Assembly (NCBI GenBank): GCA_017400965.1
Contig: JAFPRF010000004.1
Coordinates: 1-40,311, forward strand
Origin: Lachnospiraceae bacterium
GTDB lineage: Bacteria; Bacillota; Clostridia; Lachnospirales; Lachnospiraceae
Length of the DNA stretch: 40,311 nt
Reading direction: 5' to 3'
Of this stretch, positions 13,711 through 26,035 are shown piece after piece (positions within the stretch are counted from its first letter, which is position 1; each line of letters starts with the position of its first letter). The position numbers and the translations under genes were made by a program. The notes under the pieces are model-generated. The model ran no database searches and was not told where the DNA came from. It worked only from the letters and a program-made list of their open reading frames with translations.

Positions 13711-15183
13711 TTATGACAATTCAATGTATTTTCTAAGGACAAAGTGCATGCAGGTGCCCTCCCCTTCCTTGGAGGTTGCCCAAATGTACCCGCCGTGATC
13801 CTCGATGATCTTCTTCACGATGGAAAGGCCAATACCGCTGCCGCCCTGGGCGGAGTTGCGGGACGCATCCGTCCGATAGAACCGCTCGAAAACCCTGGTC
13901 AGGTCCTTCTGTGCGATGCCCTTTCCGTTGTCCTCGATCTCCACCTGAATGGAATCGTCGCGATCGAGAATGCGGATGTCGATCCGTCCGTTCGCCTTGT
14001 CCATGTATTTTACGCTGTTGCCGATGATATTGTTGATGACCTTCTTCATCTGCTCCGCGTCCGCGATGACCCTCGTCTGGGGGTCCACCATGTTCGTGTA
14101 GTTGAGCTTGATGTTGCGCGACTCCAAGTCAAGTCCCACCTCTTCCACGCAGTCGCCGAAGTAATCCGCCACGTTGATCCGCTGGAAGTTGTACTGGATG
14201 CGGTGATTGTCAATGCTCGAGTAGGTAGTCAGCTCGTTGATCAGCTTATCCATGTCGTTCGCCTTGTTGTAGACGGTGCGGATGTATTTGTCCATCTTCT
14301 CGGGCGTGTCCGCCACGCCGTCCATGATGCCCTCCACGTAACCCTTGATGGCCGTGATGGGGGTCTTTAGGTCGTGAGAGATGTTGCTGATCAGCTCGCG
14401 GTTATGCTTTTCGTTGTCTGCCTTCTCCTCCGCAGACTCCTTTAAGCGAAGCCGCATGTCCTCGTAGTTGCGGTAGAGGTCGCCGATCTCGCCCTCCGCC
14501 GAGGTCTCCAGAGAATAATCGAAGTTCCCGTCCTTGATCTTTTGCATCGCGACGTTGAGCTCCGTGATTGGGGTGAACACGCCTTTGTGGATCCAGTTTG
14601 TCAGCATCATGCTGGTAAACAGAAGGATCAGGACGATGGCGATGAACATGTACGCGACGAGCTTTCTGGAGATCAGCGCGTGCATTCTCGCTACGACAAA
14701 TACGGTACCGCTCTCCCCGTCCGGGAATTCGAAGTCGATCTGCTTTACGTACTTTTCAAGATCGTTGAAATAGATCCCGCCATCCTCATCGTGCAAGTCG
14801 CTTCCGTACTGTGGAAGTCTTGGATACAGCGCCTCCGCCGCCTGAGGGTTCCCCGTATAGTAAAGCTGCGTGCCCTTGCGCACCATAATGTAAGCACCGC
14901 GGCGTGAAAACTCCCGATTCGTTTTTTCGAGGAACTCGCGATTTTCAAAGACCGCCGAGTCCCTGGACGCCTGCGCGGAGAGCATGTCGTACATCTGGTC
15001 CGCCTCGCCGACGAAATCCTTTAGGTTGTCGCTCATCATGGTATAATCGAGCTCGCGAAGGCCGTACCCCTTTTGCACGTTGACCAGGTACACGCCGATC
15101 ATCATGAAGGCAAGCACCGTTAAAAGCAGGGGCAGCAAAATGATGCTGATAAAAGTCACCTGTAATCTTGTTTTGAATTTCAT
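13711..15183 (-). CDS. HAMP-domain sensor histidine kinase
   Basis: Two TM segments, HAMP, H-box ISHDLKTPIT, N-box NIIGNSVKY, DNGKGI, FERFYR, GGSGIGLSI; start at MKFKTRL is uncertain. Confidence 0.94.
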   Translation of the reverse strand: MKFKTRLQVTFISIILLPLLLTVLAFMMIGVYLVNVQKGYGLRELDYTMMSDNLKDFVGEADQMYDMLSAQASRDSAVFENREFLEKTNREFSRRGAYIMVRKGTQLYYTGNPQAAEALYPRLPQYGSDLHDEDGGIYFNDLEKYVKQIDFEFPDGESGTVFVVARMHALISRKLVAYMFIAIVLILLFTSMMLTNWIHKGVFTPITELNVAMQKIKDGNFDYSLETSAEGEIGDLYRNYEDMRLRLKESAEEKADNEKHNRELISNISHDLKTPITAIKGYVEGIMDGVADTPEKMDKYIRTVYNKANDMDKLINELTTYSSIDNHRIQYNFQRINVADYFGDCVEEVGLDLESRNIKLNYTNMVDPQTRVIADAEQMKKVINNIIGNSVKYMDKANGRIDIRILDRDDSIQVEIEDNGKGIAQKDLTRVFERFYRTDASRNSAQGGSGIGLSIVKKIIEDHGGYIWATSKEGEGTCMHFVLRKYIELS

Positions 15184-16931: not shown

Positions 16932-18125
16932 TTACCGGAAAAACAGCGTTACGTTACCAATCTGCAGCTCATCGCCCAGCTCGAGCTTTTTCGATTCGTA
17001 AGGTTGCAGTCTTGCATGATTTAGGCTGGTCCCATTCGTACTGTTTAGGTCTTCGAGAAAAAAACCATCCTTGTCATGCACGAGGCGCGCGTGCATGCGC
17101 GAGACGGACTCATCAGACAGATACAGATCCACTTTCTCCTTAAATTTACCGATCAGGAGATTCCCCGTACCCAGGTCGCAGGCCTTGCGTCCGTCCGCGT
17201 AGTACAAGTGCTTTGCCCCCTCCTTTTTCTCCGGCTTTTGGGTTAGGAAGGTCGTTCGGCCATATTCCTCCTCGGCATAGTCCGTTTCCTCTGCCACGCA
17301 ATACCCGTCAAGCAGCTGTTTCATGCTCTCCTGGTACTCTTCCCGCTGCTCCGCGTCCTTGGTCTTTTTATTCTTCTTATTCTCAAAGAGTCCAAAGATA
17401 CGCCGCTGCGGCGTACTAGTCGTCTCGATTTCCGTTGGTTTCACGGTTTCTACCGACTTTACGGGGCGCTGCGGCAGGGCAGGCAGGTCTTTCTTTACCT
17501 GCGGCGCGCTCTCCCAGGTTGGTACTTCCTCAATGCTGCGAAACTCGGCGGCAGTACCTGCATCCTTCTTCTCCGCTTTCTTTTCCAAAACCGCTGCATC
17601 CTTAAAGATCTGCTCCTGCAGGTAACTGGTCCCGTTTTTCTCTACCTGTTCGTACATCTTGTAGACGCATTCCACAAGCTCGGAATCGTCATAATCGATC
17701 TTCTCGACGAGGAATGCAAGCAGATCCAAAAATTGGTTTTCCCCTTCATAGTATGGCACGTACATGAAGGAAAATACGGGGTCCTCAAGGTCTTCGAACA
17801 CGTGGCGCGGGTCCCAAATGACATTCTCTTCGCGCAGCAAAAAGCGCTCAAGCTCTTGCTGGAGCTTACGAAGGCCGCTGATAAAGCCAAGGAGCCATTC
17901 GCGAGTGACGTGACCGCGCTGATGGAGCTGGAGAAGGCTTTGCTTGGAGGTAATGTCGTAGTACAAATACGCCCCGCCGTCCAAATACCGAAGGCTACAG
18001 GGCAAAAGACCCCGAATGCCTCCTCTGCAGGTGATGCAGTACTGGTATTTTTTCTCTTCCGGCTTCTCCGAAAGCAGGACCCTAACATAGTTGCTGTGCA
18101 AGTTTCTTACGTATTCCGTATTCAT
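16932..18125 (-). CDS. Tad-associated DUF6382-like/FHA domain protein
   Basis: N-terminal IRGLLPC...YLYYDITSKQSL...ERFLL region; C-terminal FHA LIGK...VSRMHA...EDLNSTNGT; AAGGAG RBS before ATG 18125. Confidence 0.82.
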   Translation of the reverse strand: MNTEYVRNLHSNYVRVLLSEKPEEKKYQYCITCRGGIRGLLPCSLRYLDGGAYLYYDITSKQSLLQLHQRGHVTREWLLGFISGLRKLQQELERFLLREENVIWDPRHVFEDLEDPVFSFMYVPYYEGENQFLDLLAFLVEKIDYDDSELVECVYKMYEQVEKNGTSYLQEQIFKDAAVLEKKAEKKDAGTAAEFRSIEEVPTWESAPQVKKDLPALPQRPVKSVETVKPTEIETTSTPQRRIFGLFENKKNKKTKDAEQREEYQESMKQLLDGYCVAEETDYAEEEYGRTTFLTQKPEKKEGAKHLYYADGRKACDLGTGNLLIGKFKEKVDLYLSDESVSRMHARLVHDKDGFFLEDLNSTNGTSLNHARLQPYESKKLELGDELQIGNVTLFFR

Positions 18126-18142
18126 GATTCTCCTTTTGTCTC

Positions 18143-18577
18143 TCAGTTCCCTTCCGAGAGGCTTACCTTTCTGCATAATCGTAAAAACGTGGCTGGATGG
18201 ATCTGCCGAGCGCTGCTAGAGACTTTCGCTTTCCAGATGCGGTCTCCCAAAAGGAGCTGCCCCGTTCGTTTGAGCTCCAGCTTGTCATGCGTTAAGGACA
18301 GGTTGATCTCTCCCTTATCCCACGCGTAATATTTCTCCGCAATATAGGTCTTTTGCGTCGATAAGATTTGCGTTTTTAGCTCCTCCGCGGTTTTCTCGCC
18401 GCTGGCCGCCGCCCGGATCGTCAGGATGGCAACGTCCTGCTCCATCAGGCACCGGTTATAGTAAAAAAGCAGAAAACATAAAACAAAAATGATCGTCCCG
18501 ATCACGATCGGCAAGACAAGCGATGCCTCCACCGTAAAATACGCGCCGACGCTTCCCTTTTTTCTTTTCATCCTCAT
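18143..18577 (-). CDS. TadE-like minor pilin
   Basis: Class III signal KKGSVGA|YFTVEASLVLP followed by a hydrophobic helix. Confidence 0.82.
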   Translation of the reverse strand: MRMKRKKGSVGAYFTVEASLVLPIVIGTIIFVLCFLLFYYNRCLMEQDVAILTIRAAASGEKTAEELKTQILSTQKTYIAEKYYAWDKGEINLSLTHDKLELKRTGQLLLGDRIWKAKVSSSARQIHPATFLRLCRKVSLSEGN

Positions 18578-18586
18578 CCCTCCATC

Positions 18587-19009
18587 TTAACTGCAAAGCG
18601 ACACCAGACACCCCAGCCAAAGAAACGGCAGATAGGGGAGCCGCAGGTCCTTGTTTTTCTTATTCTTTAGCAGGATCACCGTTGCAAAGGCGCCCATGAC
18701 CACCATGCTCACGCCAAAAGCAATGACGGCCCGCTCCATAAGGAGTAGAAGACTTACTTGCAGCAAGACGATTCCGTCCCCGCAGCCGGCGCTCCCCGTC
18801 ATTCCCGCGATCGCTAGTAAGATCACGCCCGGAACCGCGCCAAATAATAGCTCTTCCCAATGCACCGTGCCCTGCCAAAGAAGCCACCCGGCCAGCGCTG
18901 CTGCCAAAATGCTCCCTAGGAGCAGAAGCCAGGCAGAAATCGCTCTTCGCCTTGCGTCCATCAGGGACAGCACGGCCAGATAGATCATGGTTCCAACGGA
19001 TACCAGCAT
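18587..19009 (-). CDS. A24-family prepilin peptidase-like protein (second copy)
   Basis: Polytopic; SLMDARRRAIS, GCGDG and LPYLPFL motifs. Confidence 0.75.
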   Translation of the reverse strand: MLVSVGTMIYLAVLSLMDARRRAISAWLLLLGSILAAALAGWLLWQGTVHWEELLFGAVPGVILLAIAGMTGSAGCGDGIVLLQVSLLLLMERAVIAFGVSMVVMGAFATVILLKNKKNKDLRLPYLPFLWLGCLVSLCS

Positions 19010-19025
19010 TGTCTTTTCCTCCCTC

Positions 19026-20024
19026 TTAGTTCGCCTGACCCTTACCGCATCTCGAGCAAGGCCGATACTTTTTCGCCTCGTCCCAGGTCACGGCGCGGAT
19101 CGTGCGCTTAAGCCCCGGGCAGTCCCTTCGCAGATGGTAGCACGCACCCTCCGGCGAGATCCAAACCTCCACGGGCATCGGCCCGTCATTACACATGCTG
19201 CAGGCCCGATAACGACTTCCCTTGGCATTCCTCGCCTTCGAAAGCTCCGAGGAGAGGATGCAGGTCGGTTGCAGCTTTAGGTGACTGCACTCGAGGCTTA
19301 CGTGATACACCTCCGCATTTTCAGTCAGGTAATACAACGCATTGTCACCGTCTTTTAATTCATACCCCGTCCATGCACGGCCGTAGTAATGGTTTTCCAT
19401 CCAAAACCGCCGGTAACCGCGCACCGTCCACTTCGGCTGCGCCGCATAGCTGACCACCATGGAAACAAGACCGTCTCCGTTTAGGATCGAACCTCCTAAG
19501 TAAGTCAGCCCTGCGTCAGATATGGGCGCGGACTTTAGGTATTCCTTGCCCAGCGACTCCTCCACCCTGCCCTTTACGTAGGTGTAGGAAAAGGCAAGGT
19601 TCCCTACGGCATTCCGAATCTGTGCACCATCCTCACCGGCGCCCGTCTTAGCAGTCAGCCCCTTTTGCAGGGCCGCGCCGTAAATGCAGGTCTCCCTCCC
19701 GATCTCCCAAAGCGCCGTTTGCATGCGTCCGTGGAATCGCATGAGTTCCAGCCCCCCGCCTAAATTCAGGAAAAAGAGCAAAAACAGCGGGAGGACCAGC
19801 GAAGCCTCCACCGTCATAGATGCAACGATTTTTTTGACAAAGAAAGTGCGCGGCGACGTCCTCTCCATGGTATGGGATGACTGTTTGGCAAACAGTTTTT
19901 GTTGTGTGGGAGTTGCGCCCTGAAGAGGCGCATTTGAGTTTTTTGTCTGATACAAAGAAGGTGCTTGTTTTGCTGTTCCTTTTTTCTTATTTAGTTTTGG
20001 ATGCATTTTCCACAGAGAGGACAT
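19026..20024 (-). CDS. TadE-like minor pilin with long N-terminal leader and two C-terminal Cys/His repeats
   Basis: AAGAAGGTG RBS; class III site KKIVA|SMTVEASLVLP after a leader of about 67 aa; two YH-x4-C-x2-L...Y-x2-C-x2-C repeats. Confidence 0.82.
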   Translation of the reverse strand: MSSLWKMHPKLNKKKGTAKQAPSLYQTKNSNAPLQGATPTQQKLFAKQSSHTMERTSPRTFFVKKIVASMTVEASLVLPLFLLFFLNLGGGLELMRFHGRMQTALWEIGRETCIYGAALQKGLTAKTGAGEDGAQIRNAVGNLAFSYTYVKGRVEESLGKEYLKSAPISDAGLTYLGGSILNGDGLVSMVVSYAAQPKWTVRGYRRFWMENHYYGRAWTGYELKDGDNALYYLTENAEVYHVSLECSHLKLQPTCILSSELSKARNAKGSRYRACSMCNDGPMPVEVWISPEGACYHLRRDCPGLKRTIRAVTWDEAKKYRPCSRCGKGQAN

Positions 20025-20041
20025 CGCCGCGCACCTTCTTT
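19839..20041. repeat. 32-bp imperfect inverted repeat (19839-19870 and 20010-20041) around a 139-bp spacer
   Basis: Plus 19839-19870 AAAGAAAGTGCGCGGCGACGTCCTCTCCATGG vs minus 20041-20010 AAAGAAGGTGCGCGGCGATGTCCTCTCTGTGG; 28/32 identical. Confidence 0.92.
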
Positions 20042-21517
20042 CTAATATCCCTTCTCTTCATTAAGCGTTGCCCGGTATCCACGGGGACTCGTAAAGGAGA
20101 TCAGCGCCTTTAGGTCCGTACAGCAAGCGTCGATCCGAAAGTTTTTGTTCCCCGTCGTCAGACGTATGTCCGCCTCCACCATGTCCATGGCACGACAAGT
20201 CACCGCCTCATGATCCGCGACTAACAAAAGCACTTTTAAGTATTCCTGATAGGTCAGGCCCTCCTGCTCCGTTTTTCCGGCAAACCCGTCCCACATATCC
20301 TCTAAAATATTGCTTAACGCATAATGCCAGGTATGGTCATCCTTCATCAGCGGCACTCTCCCGCGATAATACAGGAGGACGCTTAGGTCATAAACGCTCT
20401 CCGCATAGGCCCAGCCAAGTAGGATCGTCGTCGTAAAGAGTTCCTGAAGCTCTGGCACGCCAAGGAGCGCACTCAGAGCCAGGGCAACCAGGTCCGCCTC
20501 TTTATATTTCGTCTGATCTGAATACAGATAAGCTACGTTTGCCGCCTCCCGCACCGCAAGGAGCTTGAGGAGTACGGCTTCCAGATTCTTGTAGTCTGAA
20601 TCCTTCCCGGCAAGCATGTATTCAAGTTCATACTCCAGCGCGCTTCCCTTCTTTGCGCCATCGTAATAGCCAAAGTAGTTTCGCAGGTACTCCACGAAAA
20701 AGATCCATTCGCTCTCCTCCTGCACGGCATTCCCCAGTTTCACGGGAAGATTCCCCTGATTCACCTTTCCGGCTTTTTGCCTCTGGGAAAAGAGGTCTCT
20801 AGGGTAAATCTTCTTCTGGGAAACCGGATGATTTCGCGTTGCCTGCCAGACAATCCCCATCTTTTTGTGATGATCCAGCGACACGGTCGGGTTATCGAAT
20901 TTGAGGATCGCCGTCTCCTTGCCCTTCTTGATCTCCTTCCCCTGATAAGAGGCGATCTTCTCGTCCACGGCCGCCTTCTCTGCCTCCACGTCCCGGGTGT
21001 CCAGCTGGTAATCTTCCACTGTCTTCATCCAATTCACGGCGTCTTGGATCGCCGCCAGGCCCAGATCATCTCGAATGGCCTCCACTGCCTTTTTGCGAAA
21101 CACGGTACCTGCATCATCTGAGAGCAAGCGATACGTCGTTACATTGGCCTGTTCCAGTTGCATGCCTAGGAAATCGCGATACCGATAGCTACCCAAATTC
21201 CCCCAGCTGCCCTTTGGCGCGCCCCCGAGATTCATGTCCAGATACCAGGCGAGCCGCCCCTCCAGATTCTCCTTGCTCGCAGTCCCGCTCCCGTAGGAAA
21301 AGTCGACGGCCAGCAGGTTAAACCTGCGAAAGAGTTCCTGATGATACTCTGCCAAGACATTGTCCGTACAAGTATCCGCGATGCATGCTGCCTCGAGCTG
21401 CAGCGTGTTGACGCGCACGCCCTCGATCAGCGCCAGGCAAAGCGTCGTCATCACGCCGAGCATCATGGCCAGATACATGGTCAGATAGGCTGGTGCGTTT
21501 TCTCTTCCCGCGATCAT
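20042..21517 (-). CDS. Tad-associated DUF5702-like large pilin-like protein (TadG-like position)
   Basis: N-terminal A|YLTMYLAM helix; LAEYHQELF, EYLRNYF, YELEYMLAGKDSD..NL, WAYAES..D and Y.EYL..LL motifs; ATGA overlap with the flp stop. Confidence 0.75.
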   Translation of the reverse strand: MIAGRENAPAYLTMYLAMMLGVMTTLCLALIEGVRVNTLQLEAACIADTCTDNVLAEYHQELFRRFNLLAVDFSYGSGTASKENLEGRLAWYLDMNLGGAPKGSWGNLGSYRYRDFLGMQLEQANVTTYRLLSDDAGTVFRKKAVEAIRDDLGLAAIQDAVNWMKTVEDYQLDTRDVEAEKAAVDEKIASYQGKEIKKGKETAILKFDNPTVSLDHHKKMGIVWQATRNHPVSQKKIYPRDLFSQRQKAGKVNQGNLPVKLGNAVQEESEWIFFVEYLRNYFGYYDGAKKGSALEYELEYMLAGKDSDYKNLEAVLLKLLAVREAANVAYLYSDQTKYKEADLVALALSALLGVPELQELFTTTILLGWAYAESVYDLSVLLYYRGRVPLMKDDHTWHYALSNILEDMWDGFAGKTEQEGLTYQEYLKVLLLVADHEAVTCRAMDMVEADIRLTTGNKNFRIDACCTDLKALISFTSPRGYRATLNEEKGY

Positions 21518-21684
21518 ACCTTATCCGTCTGTTTCGTGATCTTGCTAAAGATGGAATTGACAATGGCCGTGATCTGATCCTTGAATATGAGCACTAAGCC
21601 CACGAGCACCACGATGATCAAAATCACCTCGACCGTCCCCATACCTTCCTCGTCCTTTAGTAACTCCTTAAAGCCTCTTAACAT
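21514..21684 (-). CDS. flp: Flp1 family type IVc major pilin (56 aa)
   Basis: Below the ORF-track cutoff; MLRGFKELLKDEEG|MGTVEVILIIVVLVGLVLIFKDQITAIVNSIFSKITKQTDKV*; AAGGAAGG RBS; G|xxxxE cleavage motif. Confidence 0.93.
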   Translation of the reverse strand: MLRGFKELLKDEEGMGTVEVILIIVVLVGLVLIFKDQITAIVNSIFSKITKQTDKV

Positions 21685-21722
21685 GTTGTTCCTTCCTTTC
21701 CGTCCCCTTGGGACCTTTGTTT

Positions 21723-23300
21723 TTATGCGCCCATCATTGAAAACGCGGGCACCATAATCATCAGCATTACGGTTGCGAGTAGCAGGACCATGGGAATGAG
21801 TAGCTTTGTCTCTGCCTCCTCACCGAGCTTTTTCCCGCTCTGGATCCGGCTCTCCGCCGAGAGCAGTGCTTCCTCCTCCAGCCTTGCAAGGAGTGTTGCG
21901 CTTCCCTTTTTCAGGTTCTGACAAAGGAGCGTGCTGAGCTTTACGTACTCCCGAGGACCTGCCCTTTTCCCGAAGTGCTCATAGGCGATCAGCTCCGACT
22001 GTCCCGCCTGCATCTCGCGGCAGGCATAGGCCGCCAGCTCGCTGGTCTCCCCAAGCTTTCCGAAGGCCGAGCGGATGGTCATGCCGGCCACGAGGTACAG
22101 CGCCAAGCGATTTACCAGATCTGGATAGCCCAGCCGCAGTAAATTCCGCCGCTTTTTCACCTGGTCCTCCAGGTCCTTGTCCATCAGGAAAAAGATGCCG
22201 ACCGACGCTCCCAGCCCTAGGAGCAGTATGGTTCCAGGGAGGTTTTCCTGCCCCGCCGAGGGACCCTTTAGCCGAAGGCAGAGCGCGAGAAAACAGCTTA
22301 AGACGGCGACTAAAAACGACAACCCCAGCTTCCCGCCGTAGTACTTTCGAAGAAGATCCTCCCGATTCTCATCCTCATACAGGATCTCCAGGTACTTCCG
22401 TAGCTTTTCTTCTCCGGGCAAGCCTCGAAGCTTTCCGCGAACAAAGGCGTAGCAGGCCTCTCCGATCCTTGCCACTCTCCCAAGGACTCCCTCCCTCGCC
22501 ATGGCCGCCAGTTTTTCCTTCTTTCCCTGCCCTTCCATCTGCTTCCAGATCCCTTCAAAGATCCTTTCGCCGAGGAACAGCGAAAGCAGGTAAAGTCCAA
22601 GACATAGCGTCATGATCCCGATGCCCGAAAGCTCGTGATACAAAGGGTCAAAGTACCCAGGGTAAGTGATCCCGACGTAGAATACAATGCCAAAGGGCAT
22701 CACGCGCATCACGTTTTGCTCCATCCTTCTTCCCGCCAGCATGGTCTGCACCTCCCCCCTCGCCTCGATCCTCTGGCTGATCAGGTTTGAGCTCGTGCGG
22801 ATCATCTCGGACAGGCTTCCGCCGCCCCGCTTCGCTATGGAAAACATCTGCGCGAACTGCAGGATCTCCTCGCACCCGCTCCGCTTGCCAAAATCGAGAA
22901 GAAGTTCCTCGAGCGGCACGTTGATCACCAGGCCTCGCCGGATCCCTTCAAGCTCTTCGTAGATCAGAGACCGCTCTCCGTAAAGGTTTCGCATGTCCTC
23001 CCTACTCTCCAAAAAGGCATTTTCCACGGCGTAGCCCGCCTGGAGCGAGGCCGAAACGGAAAGGATGCATTCCTTGAACTGCTCCGTCAACTCCTCCCGC
23101 TGCCGCTGCCCCTTCTTTCGCTTTTGGTAACGGACCCAGAAGATGCCAAGAGGTGCAAGCGGGATCGCCCAGAGAAGATTCCTGTAAAAAAACCAGGCAA
23201 AGAACAAAACGATCCCCGAAGCCTCCAGCACCACCGTGACGACTTCCCTTTTGTCAAACTCATATTGGTGATAATCCAGCCGCTTTAAGCTTGTCTTCAT
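21723..23300 (-). CDS. fused TadB-TadC (two T2SS-F domains) pilus platform protein
   Basis: TadB half: SASLQAGYAVENAF, AKRGGGSL, EQNVMRVMPF. TadC half: YPDLVNRLALYLVAGMTIRSAF, QNLKKGS, GEEAETKLLIPM. Single open frame of 525 aa. Confidence 0.88.
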   Translation of the reverse strand: MKTSLKRLDYHQYEFDKREVVTVVLEASGIVLFFAWFFYRNLLWAIPLAPLGIFWVRYQKRKKGQRQREELTEQFKECILSVSASLQAGYAVENAFLESREDMRNLYGERSLIYEELEGIRRGLVINVPLEELLLDFGKRSGCEEILQFAQMFSIAKRGGGSLSEMIRTSSNLISQRIEARGEVQTMLAGRRMEQNVMRVMPFGIVFYVGITYPGYFDPLYHELSGIGIMTLCLGLYLLSLFLGERIFEGIWKQMEGQGKKEKLAAMAREGVLGRVARIGEACYAFVRGKLRGLPGEEKLRKYLEILYEDENREDLLRKYYGGKLGLSFLVAVLSCFLALCLRLKGPSAGQENLPGTILLLGLGASVGIFFLMDKDLEDQVKKRRNLLRLGYPDLVNRLALYLVAGMTIRSAFGKLGETSELAAYACREMQAGQSELIAYEHFGKRAGPREYVKLSTLLCQNLKKGSATLLARLEEEALLSAESRIQSGKKLGEEAETKLLIPMVLLLATVMLMIMVPAFSMMGA

Positions 23301-24483
23301 GCGTCAGCTCCCCTTTTCGCACCAACCTTCCCAATACCTTCCCGTCTTCCTCCCCGCTCTCCTCGAAGGAAAAGAGGGTCCCCAGCTTTATCTCCCCGTC
23401 CTCAAACCCAAGAACCTCCGCAATCTCCAATACCTTCCTCGACTTATCCCGAAGGCGCCCCAGGTGCACGATCACGTCAATCCCGGAAGCAATCTGCTGA
23501 CGGATTGCCATTAGCGGCAGGTCCATCCCCATCAGCACCATGTTCTCAAGGCGCGATAACATGTCCCTCGCGCTGTTGGCATGGCCGGTACTCATGCTCC
23601 CGTCATGTCCCGTATTTAACGCAGTGAGCATGTCTGCCGCCTCGCCGCCTCTCACCTCGCCAACGATGATCCGATCTGGTCGCATCCGGAGGGAGGTTCG
23701 GATCAGGTCTCGGATGCTGATCTCCTGACAGCCCGAAACATTCCCGTTTCTGGTCTCCAGTCGCACCAGATTATCGATGCCTAGGAGCTGAAGCTCCGCA
23801 CTGTCTTCGATGGTGATGATCCGTTCATCCTTTTGCACGAACGCTGACAGTGCATTGAGAAACGTCGTCTTACCTGACCCCGTCGAACCGCTGACAAAAA
23901 TGGAATAATGGGCTTTGACGAGCTGTTCTAAAAACTGCGCCGCCTCCTTGCTGATCGAGCCAAAGGCAAGGAGCTGTTGCATCGTAATCGGGTTTTGCGG
24001 GAAGCGCCGGATCGTCACGATCGGCCCGTTGATCGCCACGGGGTCCATAACGACGTTTACGCGTGCGCCATCCGATAGCCTCGCATCGACGATTGGCTGT
24101 GCTTCGTTCACGACTCTATTACAGCCAGCCACTATTTGCTGTATTAAATCGCGTAATCTCTCCTTAGAATCAAAGGTCAGTTCGAGCTTCGAAAGCCTTC
24201 CGCCACGCTCCACGAAAATGTTATCGCAACCGTTGATCATGATCTCCGAAACGCTCGGGTCCTCCACGAAAAACTGCAATATGTCCAGCCTTCGCATGGA
24301 ATCAAAGAGCTCCTTTTTCATCCGAAGGCGCTGGTCCACGGTCAGACGGCAGGAGGCGGGGTGCTCCAAAAGCTCCTCATCGATCAGCTCCTCGATCTCC
24401 TCGTCGCAGTAATCTCGTCCGTAATCCATTTTTTCGCGCACGTGATCCCGCATCTCCTGCTTGATCTTTTGTATATCCACCAT
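23260..24483 (-). CDS. tadA: CpaF/TadA pilus assembly ATPase
   Basis: VSEIMING, PIVDARL.DGARVN, GSTGSGKTT, IEDSAEL, LRMRPDRIIVGEVRG, NTGHDGSMSTGHAN; AGGAGG RBS before ATG 24483. Confidence 0.95.
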   Translation of the reverse strand: MVDIQKIKQEMRDHVREKMDYGRDYCDEEIEELIDEELLEHPASCRLTVDQRLRMKKELFDSMRRLDILQFFVEDPSVSEIMINGCDNIFVERGGRLSKLELTFDSKERLRDLIQQIVAGCNRVVNEAQPIVDARLSDGARVNVVMDPVAINGPIVTIRRFPQNPITMQQLLAFGSISKEAAQFLEQLVKAHYSIFVSGSTGSGKTTFLNALSAFVQKDERIITIEDSAELQLLGIDNLVRLETRNGNVSGCQEISIRDLIRTSLRMRPDRIIVGEVRGGEAADMLTALNTGHDGSMSTGHANSARDMLSRLENMVLMGMDLPLMAIRQQIASGIDVIVHLGRLRDKSRKVLEIAEVLGFEDGEIKLGTLFSFEESGEEDGKVLGRLVRKGELTHEDKLKAAGLSPI

Positions 24484-24493
24484 CTCGCGCCTC

Positions 24494-25501
24494 CTATTGC
24501 TTTTCCAGCTCTGCAATTTGGTCCCGCACGTAACCCGCCAGCTCTCCGCGGTCGAAGTACTCTAGCTCCGCGGGGAGATGCCGAAACTTCGGGAGCTTAC
24601 AGTGCTGCGTCTTTTGCAGCACGTCGTCATAACTGTACTGCTCTAAGAGCCTTTCATATTGCGAGAGCTTCCCGCTGGCCGCGTGGTCCTCCATGGTGAT
24701 CGTATAGACCTTGCGGCAGGCCCGCAGCACGTCAAAGAGTCCCTGCATGCATTCCGACAGATCCATGATCACGTAATCGTACTCTCCCAGCTCCTGCAGT
24801 CTTTGCAGAAAGGTCATCCACTCCTTCGCCGTGATGGCGAGGAGGTTCTGGCCCGACTTCATGGGCGGTACGTAATCCAGCGGTCCGATCTGCCCCACCA
24901 TGCTCTGCAGCCGCAAAGAGAACTTCTCCTTCTCCGCATTCAGGAAGTATAAAAGGTCCGCGAGATCCCTGGTCTGCAGATCCGCGATGAGCTCCTGATG
25001 CCCTGCAAAATACTCGAAATTCAAATAGAGCGTTTTATGCTCCTGCGCAAGGAGCCTCGCCATGGTAAAGGCAAAGGGTGTCTGCATGCACCTTCTGACC
25101 GGAGAAAAGAAACCGATAAAGCTAGTTCTTCCTTCCGTGCCGAGCTTTGGCAGCACCTGCGTACAGATTTCGAGATACACGGCGATGAATTCTCGGATCA
25201 GCTGATCCGCCTGCTGATACTTATTGACGTACCGCAGCCCTTTATCGCGAACGATCCCCGATTCATTTAGTACGATCATGCGCTTTGCAGCAAAGCCCTT
25301 GAGCTCCTCAACGTAACAGGACTCCGCCACCACAAGAAGGTCCACTTCCTTTTCCACTTCGAGAAGCTTCCCCAATCCCGTGTAGGTATGGACGATCCAT
25401 GGGAGGTTCTTTTGCTTTTGCATAAACTCCGTCAGAAGCTGCGCATACTCCTCTTCCTCATCGCAAAGTGCCAAGATTGCCTGTGTTTCTACCTGATTCA
25501 T
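24494..25501 (-). CDS. TadZ/CpaE-like receiver-ParA protein with degenerate Walker A
   Basis: Receiver-like N-terminus, KYQ motif, FFSPVRRCMQTPFA at the Walker A position, LYLNFE, LADLLY, YDYVIMD; directly upstream of tadA. Confidence 0.75.
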   Translation of the reverse strand: MNQVETQAILALCDEEEEYAQLLTEFMQKQKNLPWIVHTYTGLGKLLEVEKEVDLLVVAESCYVEELKGFAAKRMIVLNESGIVRDKGLRYVNKYQQADQLIREFIAVYLEICTQVLPKLGTEGRTSFIGFFSPVRRCMQTPFAFTMARLLAQEHKTLYLNFEYFAGHQELIADLQTRDLADLLYFLNAEKEKFSLRLQSMVGQIGPLDYVPPMKSGQNLLAITAKEWMTFLQRLQELGEYDYVIMDLSECMQGLFDVLRACRKVYTITMEDHAASGKLSQYERLLEQYSYDDVLQKTQHCKLPKFRHLPAELEYFDRGELAGYVRDQIAELEKQ

Positions 25502-25504
25502 AAG

Positions 25505-26035
25505 TTAATAAAACCCTCCAAAATAGAGCAAAACGCTTAGTAAGATCGGCCCCGCCATGCAGATCCCGGCCCTGCGTTTTTCCTCCAGATCATGAAAATA
25601 CAGCGTCCACTCGCCGCTTCTTGCAACGCCCTTCACGTATGCACACAAATACGAAAAGCGCTCCTTGAGATCTGACCTTCGAAGGAACCGAAACAGGGAA
25701 AAGATTGCTGCGAAAAGCAGCGAGAAGAAGAGAAAAGAAAGAATTTTACCTTTGGGAAGGGCAGCGCCAAGCACCGCAAAGAGCTTGACGTCGCCGCCTC
25801 CCATGGTACCGATGCGAAACAGAGGATACAGGGCAAGGAGCACTGCGCCGCCGCGAAGGAAAAACGAAAGCGCATCCGCCACCGCGCCGCCCCATAGGGC
25901 ATGGGCCAGTCCCAGCGCCAAAAGGACTAAGATCAGCCAGTTTGGAATTTTCATAAACCCGTAGTCAAAAATGCATGCCACGCATAAAAGGGCGCAAAAA
26001 GACAACACAAAAAACACTTCTCCCATCATAGGCAT
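25505..26035 (-). CDS. A24 prepilin peptidase (TadV/CpaA-like)
   Basis: IFDYGFMKIPNWL and MGGGDVKL carry the two catalytic Asp; first gene of the tad locus. Confidence 0.88.
   Translation of the reverse strand: MPMMGEVFFVLSFCALLCVACIFDYGFMKIPNWLILVLLALGLAHALWGGAVADALSFFLRGGAVLLALYPLFRIGTMGGGDVKLFAVLGAALPKGKILSFLFFSLLFAAIFSLFRFLRRSDLKERFSYLCAYVKGVARSGEWTLYFHDLEEKRRAGICMAGPILLSVLLYFGGFY

Follow-up and report, generated by a model that had tools for sequence, protein, structure and literature searches.

A Tad pilus operon with a putative long-leader minor pilin

The window, 40,311 nt of DNA from a Lachnospiraceae bacterium (GCA_017400965.1, contig JAFPRF010000004.1, positions 1-40,311; genome G000), carries on its minus strand a Tad operon at 16932..26035, as defined by gene calls and profile matches. 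The operon encodes an A24 peptidase, a 335-aa protein, a TadA ATPase, T2SSF (TadB/C) proteins, a Flp1 pilin, a DUF5702 protein, the pilin that is the subject of this study, a second A24 peptidase, a second TadE-like protein and a DUF6382-FHA protein. The DUF5702 pilin-like gene (20042..21517, minus strand; PF18960, E 2.5e-73) lies upstream of the pilin gene (19026..20024, minus strand), whose 332-aa product has Cys/His-rich domains on its C-terminal side and a class III site at A68|S69, placing the mature start at 19820. The prepilin leader ahead of the A|SMTVE site is indeed unusually long, as had been noted, at 68 aa rather than the estimated 67 or so.

We refer to this protein as a putative TadE-like minor pilin on the basis of its (G/A)|SxTVE motif and its Tad operon context. 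Residue -1 of the class III site is G or A in 169 of 170 orthologues and residue +5 is E in 169 of 170, and the predicted fold has a pilin-type hydrophobic N-terminal helix at residues 6-61. The protein has no Pfam or NCBIfam match, and a Foldseek search gave no match at E<=0.001; a pilin-like resemblance to PilX (Z 5.7, rmsd 2.8, 88 aligned) does not rise above the scores of unrelated rows. Orthologues were found in 191 of 201 genomes, sampled at one per genus. Within the genus, comEC is present in 24 of 25 genomes and dprA in 22 of 25. A gene for RNase III is present.

A conserved RNA helix in the pilin leader

On the mRNA strand, the start of the pilin gene is complementary to a stretch of its own leader, forming a helix that we call P1. 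The 5' arm (20010..20041, minus strand) contains the pilin Shine-Dalgarno sequence (SD; 20040-20032) and AUG (20024-20022), as the original prediction had claimed. The 3' arm (19839..19870, minus strand) lies 139 nt away within the translated prepilin leader, where it encodes MERTSPRTFF. Of the 32 nt in this unbroken duplex, 88% are Watson-Crick paired, and in the mRNA each of the remaining four is a G-U wobble. The predicted minimum free energy of the region is -93.1 kcal/mol, compared with -63.7 +/- 4.9 for 200 shuffles, none of which equalled it (z -5.95).

We found the helix in 154 of 170 orthologous loci, with a median length of 31 bp, and in none of the 16 scored among 18 orthologues from other families of the order. 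Across orthologous loci, compensatory double changes outnumber breaking ones by 389 to 40, and 283 positions are G-U while 27 are A-C. As G-U is so far in excess of A-C, the helix is RNA on the mRNA strand; judged by comparison of orthologues, covariation shows P1 to be a conserved helix of that kind. The distance between the arms preserves the reading frame in 107 of 114 loci, bearing out the proposal that the long leader is free to carry RNA structure while being translated.

The literature searched gave no description of such an element. Rfam gave no match at the gathering threshold in the window, none at E<=1 in seven pilin loci and, in ten radC or recN loci, a single irrelevant snoRNA match (E 0.13); the Rfam families include the proteobacterial radC motif.

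Several other origins for the helix were rejected. A DNA inversion or MITE does not fit the G-U to A-C ratio or the frame kept through the loop, and no inversion joints were seen in the contigs of three DNA runs (X2, X4 and X6). An intrinsic terminator with a large loop does not fit the lack of a U-tract 3' of the helix across loci. Mimicry of boxA or of an rRNA stem was set aside after comparison with the 16S processing stems of four relatives, which are alike in length, not in sequence. Splicing-like removal of the loop is disfavoured, as frame conservation through the loop argues for translation.

P1 and the pilin start site

The original prediction read P1 as a cis-acting switch, in which the helix would lock the pilin ribosome-binding site (RBS) until an upstream ribosome melts it, or leave it open only until the 3' arm has been transcribed, and would in this way set minor-pilin stoichiometry. 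The pilin start does lie mid-arm within the 5' arm in 115 of 154 helices, and across the family P1 spans about -16 to +14, which equals the ribosome footprint. Here, the base directly following the DUF5702 TAG (20044-20042) is where the helix starts, as had been observed; this exact abutment is not conserved, being found in 6 of 140 loci. The helix starts within 2 nt of the upstream stop in 23 of 140 loci, within 9 nt in 77 and more than 20 nt away in 36. Because this distance varies so widely, melting by a terminating ribosome is not supported as the main function. Nor is locking the RBS supported as the purpose of P1: 32 loci have a pilin start that no longer lies in the helix (17 inside the loop, 15 after the helix), with at least 14 such changes on the tree, and these loci retain the helix at unchanged length. 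The switch would also leave unexplained the match between the loop and radC described below. Collectively, we consider it very improbable as the explanation of P1, while an effect in cis on pilin output is a likely secondary function wherever the start lies in the 5' arm (115 loci).

A C-rich loop seed complementary to radC leaders

The RNA bounded by P1 extends over 19835..20043 (minus strand). Reading 5' to 3' between the arms, all on the minus strand, fold prediction gives an A-rich unstructured linker (19966..20009), a single-stranded C-rich seed with its extension (19939..19965), a small hairpin P2 that occupies the same place in most genus relatives (19914..19932) and a small hairpin P3 that varies among relatives (19880..19896). 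The seed motif occurs in 103 of 154 loops, whereas shuffles give about 14, and its mean unpaired probability is 0.64. It is found in at least two reading frames and is retained in non-coding versions of the module. The seed shows no covariation with any of seven cis regions (its own SD, the 3' arm, the loop halves, the downstream and upstream sequence and the next start), and a cis role as anti-SD or anti-anti-SD was rejected on this ground. The original prediction missed that this seed is complementary in trans to the mRNAs of radC, recN and comEC.

In 79 of 101 genomes the seed is complementary to the leader of the same genome's radC, just upstream of the SD, at a score of >=25 that 17.7% of non-cognate pairs reach. 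This share of genomes is inflated, as possession of the motif was the reason for choosing the genomes behind 46 of the 60 radC regions picked by hand. Across the 101 genomes, cognate pairs have a median score of 32, compared with 20 for non-cognate pairs; the genome's own loop ranks first for its radC leader in 37 and among the top three in 59. Control windows gave such a match in 4/101 and 10/101, and the P1 arms had no comparable match to the radC leader in these genomes. After subtraction of opening costs, net binding has a median of -10.1 kcal/mol, compared with +0.8 for non-cognate pairs, and the cognate pair is better in 93/101. Among 50 independent sister pairs, the own radC partner beats the swapped one in 47 and ties with it in 3, with no case of the reverse, and G214 and G208 each carry single-genome compensatory swaps in radC. 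Covariation shows that, at the level of their sequences, the loop and the radC leader co-evolve as complements across genera, and their predicted pairing in trans is strongly supported.

Could the shared sequence instead be a DNA site, set in opposite orientations in the pilin leader and ahead of radC and serving a transcription factor or RNA-guided protein or as an antisense promoter element, with P1 a separate RNA feature? G-U exceeds A-C in the trans duplex by 61 to 38 overall and by 22 to 12 in the 12-bp core, far less strongly than in P1, and the sense reading beats the antisense one in 39 cases to 27, with 20 ties. Because this excess is modest, a DNA-level reading of the trans match deserves consideration, and co-evolving sites would be expected as well if the specificity of a protein drifts. 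The matches, however, are 15-23 nt long and have species-specific extensions past the core; the motif belongs to the single-stranded loop that an RNA helix closes, and its counterpart in the radC leader is a hairpin loop; and the gap between site and SD, at 2-8 nt, is too short to allow a promoter box. The seed 10-mer is also not enriched genome-wide, its 160 matches (60 of them retrieved) being at or under control. We therefore regard a DNA site as improbable.

Predicted opening of the radC start site

In computed folds, radC leaders form a hairpin over their own start site and expose a G/A-rich core in a loop or bulge. Opening the radC start region costs 10.2 kcal/mol, compared with 5.35 for shuffled upstream sequence (higher in 66 of 73 genomes) and with 6.3 for the next gene (higher in 34/48). 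When the seed site is occupied, the cost falls to 6.0 kcal/mol, a drop of at least 2 in 52 of 73. Among class B genomes (n=11) the lock is weak, at a median of 5.9 kcal/mol. By computation, the seed site overlaps the strand that sequesters the radC RBS, the arrangement of an anti-antisense activator; for recN the same arrangement is weak.

At the locus in the window, the seed (19965-19939) is predicted to pair with radC (C231) at -40 to -15, ranking 27 of 2621 starts. This pairing is bipartite and weak, at net -5.7 kcal/mol, or +1.6 with an ungapped segment; occupying the site lowers the radC opening cost from 10.9 to 4.2 kcal/mol. The same seed is predicted to pair with recN (C326) at -34 to -14, ranking 2 of 2621, and the recN start region is not strongly locked (4.5 kcal/mol). 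In this genome and two close relatives the seed has changed to CCUUCUUUG and the recN leaders match it over 17-20 nt, with energies of -28.1, -28.9 and -29.9 kcal/mol. Among these lineage-specific compensations, the genomes G371 and G372 differ by a C-to-U change in one partner and a G-to-A change in the other, a seed-recN swap; their radC pairing is just about -17.5 kcal/mol, with uncertain start calls. Only a subset has recN as a predicted target, the own loop being top-ranked in 6 of 18, with medians of 20.5 vs 19. Further sites lie in the 5' part of the comEC coding sequence in 4/5 genomes; genus-wide, no consistent seed sites were found in comEA, dprA, comEC or the first tad gene.

The same pairing could have the opposite sign, the module repressing radC, recN and comEC in the manner of RocR, for example as a delayed shut-off of competence after Tad transcripts have accumulated and been processed. 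The radC duplex ends at a median of -16 and extends into -14..+5 in 31 of 73 genomes, where binding could repress, and the comEC sites lie in early coding sequence. Precedent also points this way: in the accounts consulted, Gram-positive sRNAs with C-rich seeds are mostly repressors (PMC12205990), and RocR of Legionella silences radC, comEC and comF (PMC6744872). Against this, the seed leaves the SD itself unpaired, binding immediately 5' of it, and its site overlaps the locking strand of leaders that are self-locked; because the radC mRNA is already locked, a repressor would gain little. We consider repression unlikely.

Complementarity by itself has no direction, and the radC and recN leaders might instead bind the loop, or the effect might be mutual, tuning P1 folding and hence pilin translation or Tad mRNA processing. 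A single loop, however, matches several unlinked mRNAs and sits tens of nucleotides from either P1 arm. The radC match is kept, moreover, in class C genomes, whose module is non-coding (6 of 7), and a strong match is kept before the pilin in 7 of the 11 genomes that lack P1. Such a reversal is thus highly improbable.

Collectively, the predicted pairings and folds favour a model in which the module is an mRNA-embedded, trans-acting activator that ties the Tad pilus to radC and, in some clades, to recN and comEC; we assign this reading a probability of about 0.6. P1 would close an RNA module of about 200 nt in the minor-pilin leader, on the mRNA strand, and the C-rich loop would base-pair in trans with the radC leader (in some clades recN or comEC) of its own genome. 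In the computed folds, this pairing would open the hairpin that hides the radC RBS and so activate translation. Of 48 loci, about 40 have an mreB-like gene next after radC, 29 of them recognised by pattern and 11 by eye. Heading a radC-mreB operon, radC is probably always transcribed, as is recN in its housekeeping operon; both would then need a competence-specific translational key, which would arrive just when the Tad operon is transcribed. P1 may bar ribosomes from the leader, present the seed and shield both ends, so that each transcript would be either a pilin template, during a short co-transcriptional window, or a regulator. The fuller proposal, that the Tad operon transcript is a self-locking, stem-closed natural toehold trigger that turns on radC, recN, comEC and other DNA-processing genes in housekeeping operons, we hold at a little under even odds.

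Relation to known systems

Loop-seeded pairing to a locking strand frees the start site in the anti-antisense pairs DsrA/RprA-rpoS, RNAIII-hla and GlmZ-glmS and in synthetic toehold switches. Such activators are independently transcribed sRNAs, whereas the module belongs to a polycistronic mRNA, within which it conceals the start codon that it carries. In RNAIII, SgrS, SR1 and 3'UTR sRNAs, one transcript both codes and regulates; the module differs in overlapping the start and disposable leader codons of a mid-operon structural protein, and in that coding and regulation look mutually exclusive.

The module resembles sRNAs in having a conserved accessible seed and covarying complementarity to an unlinked mRNA. 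RocR/RocRp of Legionella likewise base-pair in trans with the 5' regions of radC, comEC and comF; RocR is described as a free-standing 66-nt repressor needing the ProQ-domain chaperone RocC (PMC6744872). The module is instead embedded in a pilin leader (in the ORF) or operon spacer, is closed by a 30-bp helix with no terminator U-tract after it, and is predicted to bind upstream of the SD and activate; we do not place it in the RocR family. The unpaired C-rich seed between structured elements and the G-rich target recall RsaE/RoxS, FasX and the csRNAs as reviewed in PMC12205990, yet the module stems from a translated, later cleaved signal sequence and has no sequence or Rfam match to them. In Acinetobacter, Arp provides sRNA control at a pilin gene by repressing pilA, as outlined in PMC12338739, whereas here the pilin mRNA is the proposed regulator. 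Tad genes serve DNA uptake in Micrococcus luteus, in a paper whose abstract describes no such RNA (PMC4322843), and in pneumococcus radC is one of the late competence genes (PMC6560143 Table 3).

No description of natural transformation or its control in Lachnospiraceae, dominant bacteria of gut and rumen, was found in the literature searched. Co-evolution with radC would tie their core pilus to competence; if the fuller proposal is right, the core Tad locus would be their DNA-uptake pilus and an mRNA-to-mRNA relay would partly replace a competence sigma-factor regulon. It would also mean that regulatory RNAs can hide from intergenic screens in the codons of a cleaved leader peptide. With the seed as a guide, the regulon could be read in each genome separately, and transformability might be induced in commensals that are hard to engineer.

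P1 as a candidate RNase III site

In the weakest step of the model, a stable RNA might be released by an RNase III cut near the AUG, by exonuclease trimming to the helix ends, or by both. The original prediction had raised an RNase III site, and helix length makes this plausible: P1 exceeds the near-perfect duplex of at least about 22 bp expected of a substrate (median 31 bp, 5th percentile 24). The family-modal predicted cut in the 5' arm falls at 20025..20026 (minus strand), between -2 and -1 of the AUG, with its partner near 19853/19852; at the locus in the window, higher scores are reached at registers -4 and -3. A single register comes out best in 38/107 and 18/33 loci, and the outer positions of the proximal box score above all 500 spacer shuffles. 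At the modal register, -1, 87 of 107 loci pass -25.5, while best-register scores are no better than those of shuffled stems; U-G at +1, found in 21/107 loci, is absent from the E. coli matrix used for scoring.

We also considered that P1 might serve solely in selective RNA processing and stabilisation, dividing the Tad operon mRNA into an upstream and a downstream part that differ in stability. The register signal at P1 fits this view. Among B. subtilis long-range RNase III sites, the pair 310003/310154 is presumably znuB/yceA. In it, the SD-plus-start region is reported to pair with coding sequence 151 nt downstream (PMC11780869). The geometry of P1 resembles the B. subtilis sites as presented there, duplexes of 10-36 bp over 100-500 nt (up to 505 nt apart; PMC11780869), and a clostridial precedent is outlined in PMC10311766. 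The B. subtilis sites, however, are decay sites without a known conserved loop, whereas the P1 loop carries a co-evolving seed; a processing signal needs neither a large loop nor a conserved seed, and it leaves unexplained the seed-radC co-evolution and the recN compensations. We judge this reading extremely improbable on its own.

Runs X21-X23 contained nothing on the element. A single 209-nt contig from a probable RNA run, at most a faint hint of a discrete RNA, has the ends of the P1-bounded RNA, 19835..20043, and spans the uncut helix, with about six other scattered contigs of 170-220 nt in that run.

A conserved helix in the pilin leader

The predicted inverted repeat in the leader of the TadE-like minor pilin gene was confirmed: on the minus strand, 20041-20010 pairs with 19870-19839 across a spacing of 139 nt. 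This helix (P1) contains four G-U pairs in the minus-strand sense, folds with a z-score of -5.95 against 200 shuffles, and covers the Shine-Dalgarno sequence (SD) and AUG 20024 of a 332-aa protein. The leader is long, as had been claimed, at 68 rather than about 67 aa. The surrounding Tad operon encodes Flp1, T2SSF, a T2SSE ATPase, two A24 peptidases and a DUF6382-FHA protein, and close relatives are rumen Lachnospiraceae MAGs.

P1 is real and kept. Pilin orthologues were found in 191 of 201 genomes (one per genus), and we analyzed 170 loci: 150 listed orthologue matches plus 2 and 18 from two further searches, with one duplicate removed and two loci belonging to other families. A long helix precedes the pilin cleavage site in 154/170, with ungapped scores of at least 50 in 149/170, compared to 0/168 and 0/170 control windows. 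Scores were better on the mRNA strand in 144 loci and on the opposite strand in 6, and the 5' arm preferred its own leader in 92/107. Consistent with the original prediction of an RNA on the mRNA strand, non-Watson-Crick positions were G-U in 283 cases and A-C in 27. The covariation check proposed for orthologues likewise bore out the helix, as RNAalifold on 17 genus loci found compensatory changes at 26 of 30 pairs. Across 67 independent sister pairs, 389 double changes preserved pairing and 40 broke it; in a slid-register control these numbers were 65 and 59. Orthologues of other families have short leaders, and none of the 16 scored carried the helix.

The helix had been proposed to lock the pilin ribosome binding site (RBS) until a ribosome terminating upstream melts it. 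At the window locus P1 does start right after the DUF5702 stop codon, but this holds in only 6/140 loci, and in 36/140 P1 starts more than 20 nt away; because this distance varies, strict coupling is not conserved. Nor is the lock likely to be the main purpose of the helix. Of the 154 helices, 115 enclose the start codon in their 5' arm; 17 loci have it in the loop, 15 have it downstream of the helix, and 7 are ambiguous. The state changes at least 14 times on the tree (root uncertain), and full-length P1 is also kept where no start lies inside it. As median helix length is the same across these classes (31, 31 and 30 for arm, loop and after the helix), the helix is under selection whether or not a start codon is hidden. 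Arm spacing is in frame in 107/114 loci with the start in the arm, so the leader is translated there. In two loci, L027 and L046, ACG and ATA occupy the place of the start codon behind a good SD, and the leader is open; these are candidate non-canonical start codons.

The loop matches the radC leader

A C-rich motif is present in 103/154 loops, whereas only about 14 shuffled loops contain it; two reading frames predominate (62 and 21). It showed no covariation with any cis region tested. Its complement was not enriched in ten genus genomes (160 matches); among the 60 matches examined, it fell in the radC leader in five genomes, in the recN leader in two, and once by a ComF-like gene.

We compared loops with radC leaders in 110 genomes (30 best matches, 20 more, and 60 hand-picked with priority for motif-bearing loci), 101 of which were usable, having a located radC start and a helix. 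Pairing of a loop with its own radC leader had a median length of 15 nt and ended at -16, with a median score of 32 for cognate and 20 for non-cognate pairs, and a score of at least 25 in 79/101 genomes. The own loop ranked first for the radC leader in 37 of the 101 and in the top three in 59, and the own partner beat the swapped one in 47 sister pairs, with 3 ties and no pair showing the reverse. Among control windows, 4 and 10 of 101 matched radC, and the P1 arms gave no radC-type match. Net binding energy was -10.1 kcal/mol for cognate pairs versus +0.8 kcal/mol. The match is kept in 6/7 non-coding versions of the module, is weaker in loop-start loci (5/11), and lies before the pilin in 7/11 genomes lacking P1 (400-nt search space). 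Complementarity of loop and radC leader is shown by covariation. We put the probability that it represents RNA-RNA pairing at roughly 85%; G-U outnumbers A-C by 61 to 38, a modest RNA-over-DNA signature.

In one clade (L056, L094, L124, L138, L155, L167, L170, L171) the pilin start has moved into the loop, and the new RBS and start region is the part that pairs with the radC leader. The radC leaders of this clade are less locked (median 5.9 kcal/mol).

Direction of control

For the 73 genomes whose site is clear, the computed cost of opening the start region of radC is 10.2 kcal/mol. It drops to 6.0 when the site is occupied and to 5.35 when the upstream bases are shuffled, and the next gene has a cost of 6.3. 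In the window genome the radC SD and AUG lie in a predicted hairpin that presents the seed target in its loop; the seed extension is predicted to pair with the locking strand, and predicted opening falls from 10.9 to 4.2 kcal/mol. Repression of radC is possible, as the duplex ends near the SD. Because the lock is costly and is lowered when the site is occupied, we favor a model in which the module would activate radC. Genes resembling mreB follow radC in about 40 of 48 loci, a linkage that would account for a need for translational control. We infer a role of the Tad pilus in competence.

Other targets

For the seed of the window genome (19965-19939), recN ranks 2 and radC 27 of 2621 starts, with net energies of -16.2 and -5.7 kcal/mol. 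The three genomes sharing the altered seed, the window genome among them, have matching recN leaders plus further compensations. Across the family recN is a target in part only, the own loop coming first in 6/18; in the genus the figure is likewise 6/18. Two exact 11-mers gave 33 matches in ten other genomes versus 6 for controls: 10 in the Tad locus itself, 7 at radC, 4 in early comEC coding sequence, 1 at recN, 1 at a UvrD-family helicase, and 10 unexplained. Within the genus, comEA, dprA, comEC and the first tad gene showed no consistent site. At L507 (G045:C19:31406), a 16-bp seed match lies upstream of a gene for a 232-aa coiled-coil protein, possibly a further target.

Possible processing by RNase III

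Bacillus subtilis RNase III cleaves long-range duplexes of P1-like size, one spanning an SD and start codon (PMC11780869, Table S3 for the latter). We scored cut registers with an E. coli pair matrix (PMC6212723 Table S4). The modal best register was one base before the AUG position (38/107 loci), and it was also best in 18/33 loci with a moved start, a set that excludes 7 poorly anchored loci. Spacer positions -7 to -4 fit the matrix better than 500/500 shuffles, with U or C at -5 in 65% versus 29% at other starts. Best-register scores were no higher than for shuffled stems, the -1 register coincides with the helix centre, and the window locus favors -4/-3 rather than -1. In run X20 (presumed RNA), one contig (19835-20043) covers the uncut helix and extends 2 and 4 nt beyond it; as the 19.5 kb has about seven such short contigs of low depth in scattered places, it is a weak hint of a discrete module RNA. 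The module may be excised from the transcript.

Relation to known RNAs

We read the module as a variant of a trans-acting sRNA whose origin and reach are unusual; DsrA, RNAIII, GlmZ, SgrS, SR1 and toehold switches are comparison systems. It would act much as anti-antisense sRNAs do, through a C-rich seed of the Gram-positive kind. It matched no Rfam family, and we found no description of it in the literature searched, which mostly did not extend to subscription papers. Targets are shared with Legionella RocR, as described in PMC6744872 and PMC12378983, but the module is not RocR. PMC8040213 gives no function for two candidates, HMP2_16046 (39 nt, Lachnospiraceae, near CpaF) and HMP2_10232 (56 nt, Oribacterium, near RadC), which could be fragments of the module/radC system; its supplement has four TadE rows from other taxa. 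Further sources were PMC5141509, PMC5389636, PMC6560143, PMC12205990, PMC6668835, PMC10311766, PMC4322843 and PMC12338739.

Further features

A YH-x4-C...C-x2-C module with invariant His/Cys and abundant Arg/Lys occurs twice at the pilin C-terminus (19026-19520, minus); the repeats are probably zinc-binding and a candidate DNA-binding tip. A 525-aa ORF (21723-23300, minus) seemingly fuses TadB and TadC. Ahead of the Tad operon lies a sigma-A-like promoter (TTGCAA-N17-TATAAT type; 26155-26035, minus), and many relatives (L251-L270 and L275-L294 compared) have a GAGGC/GCCTC hairpin in the operon 5' UTR. As comEA leaders have a similar GAGG/CC hairpin plus a related promoter, common control of the two is possible.

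The window genome (G000) also carries dispersed intergenic palindromic repeats of 90-180 nt (contigs C363, C51, C55, C119, C223, C1, C180, C343, C298). Their ends are fixed and their stems compensate in a way specific to each copy; this REPIN/MITE-like family is unrelated to the pilin module. Of two further repeat families, one is another long element with a variable stem, on C269, C14, C111, C186, C9, C51 and C119; the other, a REP-like inverted repeat, is shorter, has a 19-nt spacer and lies on C101, C124, C297, C80, C263, C37 and C334. At a contig end, C300 (about 14390-14890) has CRISPR-like palindromic repeats spaced by about 67 nt. In the Lachnospiraceae rRNA operons L172-L179, by eye, a 5S-like gene appears to lie right after 16S, before the 23S boxA-like stretch.
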